A program made the translations under genes and the position numbers. Below, piece by piece: positions 1 to 39,235 of a stretch of 39,235 nucleotides of DNA (the first letter of the stretch is position 1; every line of letters starts with the position of its first letter). Origin of the DNA: Escherichia phage 64795_ec1; the sequence record NC_031114.1; one strand, given 5' to 3'. The notes under the pieces were generated by a model. The model was not told the origin of the DNA and did no database searches. It saw nothing but the letters and a program-made list of their open reading frames with translations.

Positions 1-66
1 ACAAAAGCCTATTCCTAAAGACGCCTTGTTGTCACCTATAAAGAGATAATCTTCATCCATCGTCTT

Positions 67-89
67 TAATACAACTCACTATAGGGAGA
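67..89 (+). promoter_or_regulatory. T7-RNAP promoter phiOL (TAATACAACTCACTATAGGGAGA)
   Basis: 23-bp match to T7 class promoter consensus, +1 G at 84. Confidence 0.8.
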
Positions 90-140
90 CTACTTAAAGA
101 TGCCTTAAAAGATTAATTTAAAGATTTATTAAAAAGAGTA

Positions 141-176
141 TTGACTTAAAGAGTCCTTAAGGTTACTATTCATCTC
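141..176 (+). promoter_or_regulatory. host sigma70 early promoter A1
   Basis: TTGACT (141-146), 17-bp spacer, TACTAT (164-169); position as in T7. Confidence 0.75.
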
Positions 177-268
177 GTCAACGGGACAACGGCCTTAAAG
201 CCACTCCCTGAGATACCGGGGTCAACCGGATAAGTAGACAGCCTGATAAGTCATACGAAAAACAGGCA

Positions 269-305
269 TTGACAACACGAAGTAACATGCAGTAAGATAC
301 ACAAC
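269..305 (+). promoter_or_regulatory. host sigma70 early promoter A2
   Basis: TTGACA (269-274), 18-bp spacer, TAAGAT (293-298). Confidence 0.75.
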
Positions 306-374
306 GTCAACCACTGACACGGTGTCTTCTAGGTGACTTAAGCGCACCACGGCACATAGGGTGAAACAAAACGG

Positions 375-410
375 TTGACAACATGAAGTAAACACGGTAC
401 GATGTACCAC
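375..410 (+). promoter_or_regulatory. host sigma70 early promoter A3
   Basis: TTGACA (375-380), 17-bp spacer, TACGAT (398-403). Confidence 0.75.
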
Positions 411-587
411 ATAAAGACACCGAGTGTCGTAGGTGTAAAAACGCGACATAGTGGATAGATGCCGAAAGCACAAGCGACCACGATAATAAAGAGCTTGTCG
501 GACATACAACGCAAGTGACGGCTAACACTGAAACAGCCTCGGCTCGATGAAACTGTAGCTTAAAGTTCTTTAACAATCTGGTAAATA

Positions 588-655
588 GCTCTTGAGTGCA
601 TGACTAGCGGATAACTCAAGGGTATCGCAAGGTGCCCTTTATGATATTCACTAAC
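588..655 (+). promoter_or_regulatory. RNase III processing hairpin R0.3 (approximate bounds)
   Basis: conserved leader ...CTCAAGGGTATCGCAAGGTGCCCTTTATGATATTCAC upstream of gene 0.3. Confidence 0.5.
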
Positions 656-676
656 AACTGCACGAGGTAATACAAG

Positions 677-1039
677 ATGGCTATGTCTAACATGACTTAC
701 AACAACGTTTTCGACCACGCTTACGAAATGCTGAAAGAAAACATCCGTTATGATGACATCCGTGACACTGATGACCTGTATGATGCTGTTCACATGGCTG
801 CCGATAGCGCCGTTCCGCACTACTACGCGGACATTTTCAGCGTAATGGCAAGCGAGGGTATTGACCTTGAGTTCGAAGACTCTGGTCTGATGCCGGACAC
901 CAAGGACGTAATTCGCATTCTACAAGCTCGCATCTATGAGCAACTCACGATTGACCTCTGGGAAGACGCTGAGGACTTGCTGAACGAGTACCTTGAGGAA
1001 GTCGAGGAAGATGAAGACTACGAAGAGGACGAAGAGTGA
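677..1039 (+). CDS. 0.3: Ocr, DNA-mimic anti-restriction protein (gene 0.3)
   Basis: 120 aa [27 protein letters not shown]... with acidic tail; near-identical to T7 Ocr as recalled. Confidence 0.97.
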
Positions 1040-1191
1040 TGGCTAATAGCACGCAATACGGTCTGACCGCTCAAACTGTACTGTTCTATAGTGATATGGT
1101 GCGCTGCGGCTTCAACTGGTCGCTCGCAATGGCACACCTTAAGGAACTGTACGAAAACAACAAGGCAATAGCCTTGGAGTCTGCTGAGTGA
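1039..1191 (+). CDS. 0.4: gene 0.4 protein (FtsZ inhibitor in T7)
   Basis: 50 aa [50 protein letters not shown]; ATG overlaps ocr stop; below ORF-track size cutoff. Confidence 0.85.
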   Translation: MANSTQYGLTAQTVLFYSDMVRCGFNWSLAMAHLKELYENNKAIALESAE

Positions 1192-1193
1192 TA

Positions 1194-1236
1194 GGCTCAA
1201 GGTCGCTCCTAGCGAGTGGCCTTTATGATTATCACT
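1194..1236 (+). promoter_or_regulatory. RNase III site R0.5
   Basis: CTCAAGGTCGCTCCTAGCGAGTGGCCTTTATGATTATCAC hairpin motif. Confidence 0.55.
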
Positions 1237-1253
1237 TTACTTGAATGGGAGTA

Positions 1254-1388
1254 ATGTATATGCTTACTATCGGTCTACTCACCGCTCTAGGTCTAGCTGT
1301 AGGTGCATCCTTTGGGAAGGCTTTGGGTGTAGCTGTAGGCGCTTACTTGGTGGCTTGTATCGTCACGGGAGCACTACGCAAATGCTGA
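1254..1388 (+). CDS. 0.5: gene 0.5 small hydrophobic protein
   Basis: 44 aa MYMLTIGLLTALGLAVGASFGKALGVAVGAYLVACIVTGALRKC, hand-translated; ORF-track entry 1241-1519 is a different frame. Confidence 0.7.
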   Translation: MYMLTIGLLTALGLAVGASFGKALGVAVGAYLVACIVTGALRKC

Positions 1389-1519
1389 AACACTACGTTA
1401 TGCCAATCCACACGCCCAACGGGGCAACTGTATGCACACCTAATGGGTTCGCAATGAAACAGCGAATCGAACGCCTTAAGCGTGAACTACGAATCAACCG
1501 CAAGATTAACAACATCTAA
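1382..1519 (+). CDS. 0.6: gene 0.6 protein (0.6A-like, short form)
   Basis: 45 aa MLKHYVMPIHTPNGATVCTPNGFAMKQRIERLKRELRINRKINNI; overlaps 0.5 stop. Confidence 0.65.
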   Translation: MLKHYVMPIHTPNGATVCTPNGFAMKQRIERLKRELRINRKINNI

Positions 1520-1531
1520 CTTTTGGAGAAT

Positions 1532-2617
1532 ATGCAAGTGAACATTACCAACATCATGAACGCTATCGACGCAATCAAAGCACTGCCAATCTGTGAACTC
1601 GACAAACGTCAGGGTATGCTCATCGACTTACTGGTTGAGATGGTCAACAGCGAGACATGCGATGGCGAGATAACCGAACTGAATCAGGCACTTGAGCATC
1701 AAGATTGGTGGACTACCTTGAAGTGCCTCACGGCTGACGCAGGTTTTAAGATGCTCGGTAATGGTCACTTCTCGGCTGCTTATAGTCACCCGCTGCTACC
1801 TAACAGAGTGATTAAGGTGGGCTTTAAGAAAGAGGACTCAGGCGCTGCGTATACCGCATTCTGCCGCATGTATCAGGGCCGTGCAGGTATCCCTAACGTC
1901 TACGATGTGCAGCGTCACGCTGGGTGCTATACGGTTGTTCTCGATGCACTGAATGATTGCGAACGTTTCAACAACGATGAGCACTATAAATACGCTGAGA
2001 TTGCAAGTGACATCATTGACTGTAAATCAGATGCGCACGATATGTTAACTGGGTGGGATGGAGAGTTCGTCGAGACTTGCAAGCTAATCCGCAAGTTCTT
2101 TGAGGGCATCGCTTCGTTCGACATGCACAGCGGGAACATTATGTTCAGTGATGACGGTACGCCATTCATTACCGACCCTGTATCGTTCTCGCAGAAGAAA
2201 GACGGTGGCGCATTCAGTATTGACCCTGATGAACTCATTAAGGAAGTCGAGGAGGTCGCACGCCAGAAGGCAATCGACCGTGCAGTTGACCGCAAGCGTA
2301 GACATGAGGAGCGTCCAGTTCGCCGTAAACTCAAGCGTCGCAACCGTAAGGCACGCAAGGCGCACCAAGAGAAGCACAAGCGAATGGTTGCTGCGTGGCG
2401 TATGGCTGAGCGCCAAGAACGACGTAACCATGAGGTAGCTGTAGATGTACTGGGAAGGACCAATAACGCTATACGCTGGGTTAACATGCTCGCTGGGGAC
2501 TTTAAGGCGCTTGAGGAACGAATTGCGGCGCACTGGTTCCAAGCTGACCGAATGGCTATCGCTAACGGTCTTCCGCTTAACATTGACAAGAAACTTGACG
2601 CAATGTTAATGGGCTGA
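1532..2617 (+). CDS. 0.7: gene 0.7 Ser/Thr protein kinase / host transcription shut-off protein
   Basis: strong similarity to T7 gp0.7 (…[39 protein letters not shown]…); ATG 1532 chosen, TTG 1523 is the alternative. Confidence 0.92.
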
Positions 2618-2680
2618 TAGTCTTATCTTACAGGTCATCCGACTGAGGGTGGCCTGAATAGATACGATTTACTAACCATA
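2618..2680 (+). promoter_or_regulatory. RNase III site R1 (approximate)
   Basis: conserved leader GATAGTCTTATCTTACAGGTCATC...GGTGGCCTGAATAG upstream of gene 1. Confidence 0.45.
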
Positions 2681-2691
2681 AGAGGCACTAA

Positions 2692-5343
2692 ATGAACACG
2701 ATTAACATCGCTAAGAACGACTTCTCTGACATCGAACTGGCTGCTATCCCGTTCAACACTCTGGCTGACCATTACGGTGAGCGTTTAGCTCGCGAACAGT
2801 TGGCCCTTGAGCATGAGTCTTACGAAATGGGTGAAGCACGCTTCCGCAAGATGTTTGAGCGTCAATTGAAAGCTGGTGAGGTTGCGGATAACGCTGCCGC
2901 TAAGCCTCTCATTACTACCCTGCTCCCTAAGATGATTGCACGCATCAACGACTGGTTTGAGGAGGTGAAAGCTAAGCGTGGCAAGCGCCCGACAGCCTTC
3001 CAGTTCCTGCAAGAAATCAAGCCGGAAGCTGTAGCGTACATCACCATTAAGACCACTCTGGCTTGTCTGACTAGCGCGGATAACACAACAGTTCAGGCTG
3101 TAGCAAGCGCAATCGGTCGAGCAATTGAGGATGAGGCGCGATTCGGTCGCATCCGTGACCTTGAGGCCAAGCACTTCAAGAAAAACGTTGAGGAGCAACT
3201 AAACAAGCGCGTAGGTCACGTCTACAAGAAAGCATTCATGCAGGTTGTCGAGGCTGACATGCTCTCTAAGGGTCTAATGGGCGGCGAGGCGTGGTCTTCA
3301 TGGCACAAGGAAGACTCCATTCACGTAGGTGTTCGCTGCATTGAGATGCTCATTGAGTCAACCGGAATGGTTAGCTTACACCGCCAAAACGCTGGCGTAG
3401 TGGGGCATGACTCTGAGACTATCGAACTCACGCCGGAATACGCTGAGGCTATCGCAACCCGTGCGGGTGCACTGGCTGGCATCTCTCCGATGTTCCAACC
3501 TTGCGTGGTTCCTCCTAAGCCTTGGACTGGTATTACTGGAGGTGGCTATTGGGCCAACGGTCGCCGTCCTCTGGCACTGGTGCGCACTCACAGCAAGAAA
3601 GCACTGATGCGCTACGAAGACGTTTACATGCCTGAGGTGTACAAGGCGATTAACATTGCGCAAAACACCGCATGGAAAATCAACAAGAAAGTCCTAGCGG
3701 TCGCCAACGTAATCACCAAGTGGAAGCACTGCCCTGTAGAGGACATCCCCGCGATTGAACGTGAAGAACTCCCGATGAAACCGGAAGACATCGACACGAA
3801 TCCTGAGGCGCTCACCGCTTGGAAACGTGCTGCCGCTGCTGTATACCGCAAAGACAAGGCACGCAAGTCTCGCCGTATCAGCCTTGAGTTCATGCTTGAG
3901 CAAGCCAACAAGTTCGCTAACCATAAGGCCATCTGGTTCCCTTACAACATGGACTGGCGCGGTCGTGTTTACGCTGTGTCAATGTTCAACCCGCAAGGTA
4001 ACGACATGACCAAGGGTCTGCTGACGCTGGCTAAAGGTAAACCAATCGGTAAAGAGGGTTACTACTGGTTGAAAATCCACGGTGCAAACTGCGCTGGTGT
4101 CGATAAGGTTCCGTTCCCTGAGCGCATCAAGTTCATTGAGGACAACCACGAGAACATCATGGCTTGCGCTAAGTCTCCACTGGAGAACACTTGGTGGGCT
4201 GAGCAAGATTCTCCGTTCTGCTTCTTAGCGTTCTGCTTTGAGTACGCTGGGGTTCAGCACCACGGCCTTAGCTACAACTGCTCGCTGCCTCTGGCGTTCG
4301 ATGGGTCTTGCTCTGGTATCCAGCACTTCTCCGCGATGCTTCTCGATGAGGTAGGCGGTATGGCTGTTAACCTACTGCCTAGTCCTACCGTTCAGGATAT
4401 CTACGGGATTGTCGCTAAGAAAGTCAACGTGATTCTACAAGAAGACGTAATCAACGGGACCGATAACGAAGTAGTCACCGTGACCGATGAGAACACTGGG
4501 GAAATCTCTGAGAAAGTCAAGCTGGGCACTAAGGCGCTGGCTGGTCAATGGCTGGCTTACGGTGTTACTCGCAGCGTGACTAAGCGTTCAGTCATGACGC
4601 TGGCTTACGGGTCCAAAGAGTTCGGCTTCCGCCAACAAGTGCTGGAAGATACCATTCAGCCAGCTATTGATTCCGGTAAGGGTCTTATGTTCACTCAACC
4701 GAATCAGGCTGCTGGGTACATGGCTAAACTGATTTGGGAAGCTGTGAGCGTCACGGTGGTGGCTGCGGTTGAAGCAATGAACTGGCTTAAGTCTGCTGCT
4801 AAGCTGCTTGCTGCTGAGGTCAAAGATAAGAAGACTGGGGAGATTCTTCGCAAGCGTTGCGCTGTACATTGGGTTACTCCTGATGGCTTCCCTGTGTGGC
4901 AGGAATACAAGAAGCCTATCCAGACTCGCTTGAACCTGATTTTCCTCGGTCAGTTCCGTCTACAGCCCACCATTAACACAAACAAGGATAGTGAGATTGA
5001 CGCTCACAAACAGGAGTCCGGTATAGCTCCTAACTTTGTGCATAGCCAAGATGGTAGCCACCTGCGTAAGACTGTAGTGTGGGCACACGAGAAGTACGGA
5101 ATCGAATCGTTTGCACTGATTCACGACTCCTTCGGGACCATTCCGGCTGACGCTGCCAACCTGTTCAAAGCTGTACGCGAAACTATGGTTGACACCTATG
5201 AGTCTTGTGATGTACTGGCTGACTTCTATGAGCAGTTCGCTGACCAGTTACACGAGTCTCAATTGGATAAAATGCCAGCACTTCCGGCTAAAGGTAACTT
5301 GAACCTACAGGACATCCTTAAGTCAGACTTCGCGTTCGCGTAA
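2692..5343 (+). CDS. 1: T7-type single-subunit DNA-dependent RNA polymerase (gene 1)
   Basis: 883 aa, MNTINIAKNDFSDIELAAIPFNTLADHYGERLAREQLALEHESYEMGEARFRKMF…, ends …LKSDFAFA. Confidence 0.99.
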   Translation: MNTINIAKNDFSDIELAAIPFNTLADHYGERLAREQLALEHESYEMGEARFRKMFERQLKAGEVADNAAAKPLITTLLPKMIARINDWFEEVKAKRGKRPTAFQFLQEIKPEAVAYITIKTTLACLTSADNTTVQAVASAIGRAIEDEARFGRIRDLEAKHFKKNVEEQLNKRVGHVYKKAFMQVVEADMLSKGLMGGEAWSSWHKEDSIHVGVRCIEMLIESTGMVSLHRQNAGVVGHDSETIELTPEYAEAIATRAGALAGISPMFQPCVVPPKPWTGITGGGYWANGRRPLALVRTHSKKALMRYEDVYMPEVYKAINIAQNTAWKINKKVLAVANVITKWKHCPVEDIPAIEREELPMKPEDIDTNPEALTAWKRAAAAVYRKDKARKSRRISLEFMLEQANKFANHKAIWFPYNMDWRGRVYAVSMFNPQGNDMTKGLLTLAKGKPIGKEGYYWLKIHGANCAGVDKVPFPERIKFIEDNHENIMACAKSPLENTWWAEQDSPFCFLAFCFEYAGVQHHGLSYNCSLPLAFDGSCSGIQHFSAMLLDEVGGMAVNLLPSPTVQDIYGIVAKKVNVILQEDVINGTDNEVVTVTDENTGEISEKVKLGTKALAGQWLAYGVTRSVTKRSVMTLAYGSKEFGFRQQVLEDTIQPAIDSGKGLMFTQPNQAAGYMAKLIWEAVSVTVVAAVEAMNWLKSAAKLLAAEVKDKKTGEILRKRCAVHWVTPDGFPVWQEYKKPIQTRLNLIFLGQFRLQPTINTNKDSEIDAHKQESGIAPNFVHSQDGSHLRKTVVWAHEKYGIESFALIHDSFGTIPADAANLFKAVRETMVDTYESCDVLADFYEQFADQLHESQLDKMPALPAKGNLNLQDILKSDFAFA

Positions 5344-39156: not shown

Positions 39157-39235
39157 TCTCACAGTGTACGGACCCAAAGTTCCCCCCATACGGGGTACCT
39201 AAAGCCCACCTAAAGTCAACCGAAGGTCCTTAGGG
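39157..39235 (+). repeat. beginning of the direct terminal repeat (partial, truncated by the window edge)
   Basis: TCTCACAGTGTACGGACCCAAAGTTCCCCCCATACGGGGTACCTAAAGCCCACCTAAAGTCAACC closely matches the T7 genome-end sequence as recalled. Confidence 0.7.

Follow-up and report, generated by a model that had tools for sequence, protein, structure and literature searches.

The acidic tail of Escherichia phage 64795_ec1 Ocr has the commonest length among the homologues surveyed, and that of T7 Ocr is short

The ocr locus and its genomic context

This study examined the ocr gene (gene 0.3) of Escherichia phage 64795_ec1 in the sequence record NC_031114.1, a stretch of 39,235 nucleotides referred to below as the window. 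Sequence identity to T7 and to Cedecea phage Yanou is ~92% over the first 25 kb of the genome. T7 332-3300 and positions 14-2821 are collinear, with T7 332-766 aligning to 14-425. By its position, ocr is the first putative early gene of this T7-like genome, 3' of promoter-like sites for the host RNA polymerase, and it is followed by homologues of 0.4, 0.5, 0.6A and the 0.7 kinase and then by the gene 1 RNA polymerase (883 aa). The features of the region are collected in Table 1.

Table 1. Features in and around ocr in the 64795_ec1 window
Feature	Position	Strand	Basis and remarks
Sigma-70 promoter-like site, A1 equivalent	141-169	+	Consensus scan; order and position as in T7
Sigma-70 promoter-like site, A2 equivalent	269-298	+	Consensus scan; order and position as in T7
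Sigma-70 promoter-like site, A3 equivalent	375-403	+	Consensus scan; order and position as in T7
ocr (gene 0.3) coding sequence	677..1039	+	120 aa plus TGA stop; ORF list; Pfam, PDB and PHROG matches
Acidic C-terminal tail, residues 107-120	995..1036	+	12 of 14 residues D or E; sequence and ORF list
Three codons GAT GAA GAC (D112 E113 D114) that T7 ocr is without	1010..1018	+	HMMER alignment to 1s7z; within the length-variable GAR/GAY tract
GAGGA in ocr codons E117-D118, likely Shine-Dalgarno of gene 0.4	1025..1029	+	9 nt upstream of the gene 0.4 ATG
Gene 0.4 homologue, 50 aa	1039..1191	+	PHROG 7202, E 1.5e-33, full length; the ORF list starts it at GTG 1036

The promoter-like sites match the consensus at 9-10 of 12 positions, and the scan returned four sites where 2.0 are expected from shuffled sequences. 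The order and positions of the A1-A3-like sites agree with the T7 annotation. In T7, the early promoters A1, A2 and A3 drive ocr, and in 64795_ec1 ocr is likewise the first gene after their equivalents.

Some further features of the record concern its ends and its other early genes. A T7-type phage-polymerase promoter, TAATACAACTCACTATAGGGAGA, is present at 67-89, upstream of the A1-like site. We take it to be one base off the T7 consensus, its seventh base being A instead of G, and to be placed like T7 phiOL. A sequence similar to that of the T7 left end (TCTCACAGTGTACGGACC..., T7 1-72, 85% identity) is located at 39157-39221, while position 14 aligns with T7 332, and the record is therefore not cut at the physical ends of the genome. 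No blastn match to T7 73-331 was obtained in 64795_ec1, so that the bulk of the terminal-repeat region is missing or diverged. Similarly, blastn found nothing in 64795_ec1 corresponding to T7 1770-2015 (the end of 0.6A plus the 0.6B region), and this phage is thus without part of the T7 0.6 region. Depending on whether it starts at TTG 1523 or ATG 1532, the 0.7 kinase homologue (1523-2617) is about 361-364 aa long, compared with 359 aa in T7.

Identity of the gene product

The gene encodes a standard and correctly named Ocr DNA mimic that was already known: an exact-sequence look-up found the same 120-aa sequence on deposit at NCBI as 'ocr-like anti-restriction [Escherichia phage 64795_ec1]' (YP_009291479.1 / ANM45726.1). 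The protein matches the Pfam family PF08684, 'DNA mimic ocr', with 209.3 bits (E 1e-62) where the gathering score is 25 bits, over profile positions 1-101 of 101. It also matches PHROG 2568, 'ocr-like anti-restriction' (E 2e-56), and phmmer aligns its residues 1-120 with residues 1-117 of PDB 1s7z_A, the T7 Ocr (E 5e-69). The PF08684 and 1s7z matches agree with the identification as Ocr in an earlier interpretation of the DNA made without database searches, hereafter the sequence-only reading. No identical record was present in the phage collection searched, in which the nearest ocr is that of Serratia phage Pila, at 95.6%.

The extreme acidity of the Ocr family is evident in the mature 119-aa protein, which contains 37 D/E against 6 K/R. 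For T7 Ocr, the published figures are 34 D/E against 6 K/R per 116-aa monomer (PMC3439906). The AlphaFold2 model of the 64795_ec1 monomer (mean pLDDT 86.6) has helices at residues 8-25, 31-45, 50-57 and 78-119, and its predicted fold is all-alpha with a long C-terminal helix, as expected of the Ocr family. In this model the last helix runs on through the tail with a mean pLDDT of 73 for residues 111-120, compared with 91-96 for the preceding blocks, values from a monomer model that cannot settle whether the tail is disordered.

Two minus-strand open reading frames lie over the tail (945..1052, 35 aa, and 1018..1200, 60 aa). They were discounted, as the genes identified here and the annotations of the homologous T7 region are all on the plus strand.

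The names attached to this protein in databases are not uniform. The UniRef name of 64795_ec1 Ocr is 'Protein kinase', and ocr is labelled 'protein kinase' or 'receptor binding protein kinase' in many deposited T7-like genomes, e.g. those of Salmonella phage C2, PHB19, PHB20 and EFA-2. These kinase labels on ocr are a propagated annotation error.

Differences from T7 Ocr

All 117/117 residues of T7 Ocr (gp0.3; UniProt OCR_BPT7; PDB 1s7z; 117 aa) align with 64795_ec1 Ocr at 97% identity, a direct comparison to which no chance statistic applies. Residues 1-34, 36-37, 39-43 and 45-111 are identical in the two proteins, and there are exactly three substitutions from T7 to 64795_ec1: H35Y, I38V and N44S (Met1 numbering, phmmer alignment to 1s7z_A). 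None of the three alters the charge. The remaining difference is a gap of three residues in T7 Ocr, opposite D112-E113-D114 (DED) of 64795_ec1 Ocr and before the tail tyrosine, although within the acidic run it could just as well be placed a few residues away. The stop codon also differs, being TGA (nt 1037-1039) in 64795_ec1 and TAA in T7. The full-length homology covers the region around residues 48-57 and the central residues 59-91, all of which fall within the identical stretch 45-111.

The descriptive part of the sequence-only reading is borne out by this alignment. It had described a tail three residues longer than that of T7, had given the T7 tail correctly as EEVEEYEEDEE, and had been right about the internal substitutions, for which it quoted a 12-residue stretch corresponding to LHDAIHMAADNA in T7. 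The span that it gave, 1000-1039, corresponds approximately to the tail and the stop codon.

Tail length in the Ocr family

Tail lengths were surveyed in the best 120 cluster representatives from a search of 5.8 billion proteins, together with the 64795_ec1 protein and T7, using the conserved N-E-Y-L motif as the anchor. The tail was measurable in 114 sequences (112 cluster representatives, 64795_ec1 and T7), among which a closest subset of 66 (64 representatives, 64795_ec1 and T7) was considered separately. A tail of 14 residues is the mode, with 29 of the 114 measurable tails and 26 of the 66 closest ones, whereas the T7 length of 11 residues occurs in 8/114 and 2/66, respectively. Full-length close relatives in IMG/VR and GenBank have an Ocr of 114 to 123 aa, most commonly 120 aa, the length of half (14) of the 28 members listed for the two 90% clusters concerned. 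The commonest tail string, shared by 9 sequences, is one conservative E-to-D change away from that of 64795_ec1, and a tail identical to the latter is present in an independent cluster representative, P0001, on 4 contigs.

The body substitutions follow a similar pattern. S44 is the family consensus and N44 of T7 the deviation, V38 is frequent among Ocr homologues, and the combination Y35/V38/S44 is found in four cluster representatives besides 64795_ec1. Across the family, no part of the protein varies more than the tail. On these sequence counts, the usual Ocr of the family has 120 aa and a 14-residue tail, and T7 Ocr is a short minority form. The significance that the sequence-only reading had attached to a longer tail is consequently unsupported, the longer form being the usual one and T7 the outlier. 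The alignment with homologues that it had proposed as a check places the 64795_ec1 tail among common Ocr variants, which is the first half of the outcome it had itself named as speaking against its idea about the tail, the other half being that the variants do not differ in function.

With regard to where the length varies, the tail DNA consists of successive GAR and GAY codons (Glu and Asp), and in 27 related loci differences in length are limited to the part from V109 to the tyrosine. In homologues whose tail has a tyrosine, the spacing between EEV and the tyrosine ranges from 0 to 10 residues and is most often 5. The segment after the tyrosine, on the other hand, comprises exactly 5 residues in 29 of the 37 tyrosine-bearing tails.

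Overlap of ocr with gene 0.4

The gene 0.4 ATG (1039-1041) overlaps the ocr stop codon, forming TGATG in 64795_ec1 and TAATG in T7. The same 1-nt overlap is present in T7, where ocr occupies 925-1278 and gene 0.4 occupies 1278-1433. In 24/24 loci with an intact downstream gene, 64795_ec1 included, the start of that gene is preceded at 7-10 nt by a GAGGA or AGGAGG, although GAGGA turns up readily in any Glu-rich coding run. The combination of stop/start overlap and GAGGA/AGGAGG extends to SP6-like phages, whose downstream gene is unrelated. In the annotation of Serratia phage Pila, a ribosome-binding site of the 0.4 homologue is independently marked at the equivalent place.

Codon -4 of ocr is GAG in 17/17 distinct sequences. 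A synonymous-site control, in which 3/5 of the last five codons are invariant compared with 41% of the D/E codons of the body, was not significant with these 17 distinct sequences. A search of positions 1-3000 of 64795_ec1 on both strands against Rfam gave nothing at the gathering threshold. The layout of the motifs is such that the 3' end of ocr may reasonably be thought to double as the ribosome-binding site of gene 0.4. As the last ocr codons overlap this likely initiation region, ocr deletions and C-terminal tags may disturb the translation of gp0.4, and the possibility of altered gp0.4 expression is thus relevant to engineered ocr constructs.

Origin and significance of the tail length difference

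The 64795_ec1 phage is a Teseptimavirus with a standard Ocr, which would be expressed first after infection from host-type early promoters. The difference of three residues from T7 sits in a low-complexity GAR/GAY run, from V109 to the tail tyrosine, that is prone to length change. Replication slippage or misaligned recombination is the most plausible source, and both would be expected to give in-frame length changes in a tract of repeated triplets. The tract usually contains 5 residues in the Ocr family, giving a 14-residue tail, compared with 2 in T7, which would make the event to be explained a 9-nt loss in the lineage of T7, not a gain in 64795_ec1. The last five codons (EEDEE) appear fixed in length, possibly because the gene 0.4 ribosome-binding site is held there. 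Taken together, the tail length difference is very probably a neutral or nearly neutral polymorphism of a slippage-prone acidic tract, the extreme 3' end of which may be fixed by the start region of gene 0.4.

A sequencing or assembly artefact is hardly credible. Miscalls are conceivable in such a repetitive tract, but the difference is in frame and of exactly 9 nt, the identical tail recurs in P0001, an independent representative seen on 4 contigs, and 14-residue tails occur in many independently sequenced phages. It is also very unlikely that the tail is shaped at the RNA level as a whole, with the gene 0.4 initiation region setting it and the variable tract serving as a spacer for coupling between 0.3 and 0.4. 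The stop/start overlap with its motif in all 24 loci, SP6-like phages included, the independent annotation in Pila and the fixed length of the post-tyrosine segment all speak for a role of the gene 0.4 start region. This role accounts for the conserved last five codons, however, and not for the length variation of the upstream tract. At 21-29 nt upstream of the gene 0.4 ATG, the inserted codons are too distant to belong to a normal ribosome-binding site, and the synonymous-site control gives the role no significant backing.

The proposal that remains is adaptive tuning, the general idea of the sequence-only reading, and we consider it improbable. By lengthening or recharging the end of the mimic, three extra acidic residues would here change the host systems that are inhibited or triggered (type I R-M families, BREX BrxX, PARIS AriA). 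In a cryo-EM study of E. coli BrxX with Ocr, the tail residues Glu107, Glu111 and Glu116 are reported to form hydrogen bonds with BrxX (PMC11317158), and the DED insertion, being located between Glu111 and Glu116, could therefore shift these contacts. Charge is one of the major factors in the recognition of Ocr by AriA (PMC10802264). The variability of the tail within the family could also reflect diversifying selection, but neutral slippage in a repetitive GAR tract would yield such variability as well. Moreover, the common 14-residue form spans phages whose listed hosts are Escherichia, Salmonella, Shigella, Serratia and Yersinia, which argues against any special adaptation of 64795_ec1. Anti-EcoKI restriction activity survives deletion of the tail, since the T7 truncations Ocr109 and Ocr99 are still active, and Roberts et al. 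(2012) stated that the tail can be deleted 'with little effect' (PMC3439906). Salmonella BREX is inhibited to the same full extent by T7 Ocr and by SP6 Gp5, whose tail is different (PMC11341690).

The tail is nevertheless not completely inert, given the unexplained failure of Ocr109 to block EcoKI methylation in vivo (PMC3439906), and in view of the BrxX contacts a small effect of its length is conceivable. The change from 34 to 37 acidic residues is small, and Ocr tolerates far larger ones in charge-removal studies: ~16 acidic side chains per monomer are neutralised before the binding of Ocr to M.EcoKI drops to the level of DNA (PMC3439906). The charge block crucial for EcoKI inhibition is that of residues 59-91 (Roberts et al. 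2012, PMC3439906). No Ocr tail mutants are reported in two PARIS papers (including PMC10802264) or in the paper on the Salmonella PglX-Ocr structure, and we found no comparison of natural tail lengths (117-aa against 120-aa alleles) in the literature. The published evidence, although indirect, suggests that the 14-residue tail makes no functional difference. There is only a slim chance that a tail of 11 as opposed to at least 14 residues measurably alters the engagement of BrxX or AriA, the two lengths being alternative solutions to a trade-off between BREX inhibition and PARIS avoidance or triggering. A neutral or nearly neutral length polymorphism remains our preferred interpretation.

Comparison with known Ocr proteins

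Close counterparts of 64795_ec1 Ocr are the 120-aa proteins of Escherichia phage MeretOppenheim_Bas102 and Salmonella phage C2, which have the same length, tail layout and overlap with a 0.4 homologue. In the 111-nt tail region, their DNA is 95.5% and 91.9% identical to that of 64795_ec1, respectively, and the sole tail difference is conservative, with E112 in both instead of D112. The P0001 protein (metagenome and Logan contigs, 120 aa) has the same tail and 97% overall identity, and differs by four body substitutions, D33G, Y35H, A51S and E96A. The homologue SP6 Gp5 (NP_853565.1, P0066) is more distant, with 77% identity; it comprises 119 aa, its 13-residue tail (EEIEAEEDEEEDE) is without the tyrosine, and its downstream gene differs from that of 64795_ec1.

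Two deposited records in this group are unusual. The 'Ocr' of Yersinia phage phiA1122 (P0027; L002, IMG/VR 638277131, 37,555 bp) has 140 aa, of which the N-terminal 108 residues are Ocr while the C-terminus is the end of the gp0.7 kinase. Such a hybrid implies a deletion fusing genes 0.3 and 0.7. The record MT350293.1, 'Enterococcus phage EFA-2', carries a T7-type ocr with 93.9% identity, and its host is given as Enterococcus faecalis. As a Gram-positive host is implausible for a Teseptimavirus, the probable cause is contamination or an error in the host label.

T7 Ocr mimics DNA as a dimer, filling the groove in which type I R-M enzymes and BREX BrxX/PglX bind DNA. Because of the 97% identity and the identical residues 45-111, 64795_ec1 Ocr should, judging from its sequence, behave like T7 Ocr, forming a dimer and inhibiting type I R-M and BREX systems. 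All Ocr biochemistry and structural work nevertheless takes T7 as its reference, the tail of which is atypically short, and statements on the C-terminus derived from T7, namely its disorder, its dispensability and its contacts with BrxX, therefore describe a minority variant of the family.
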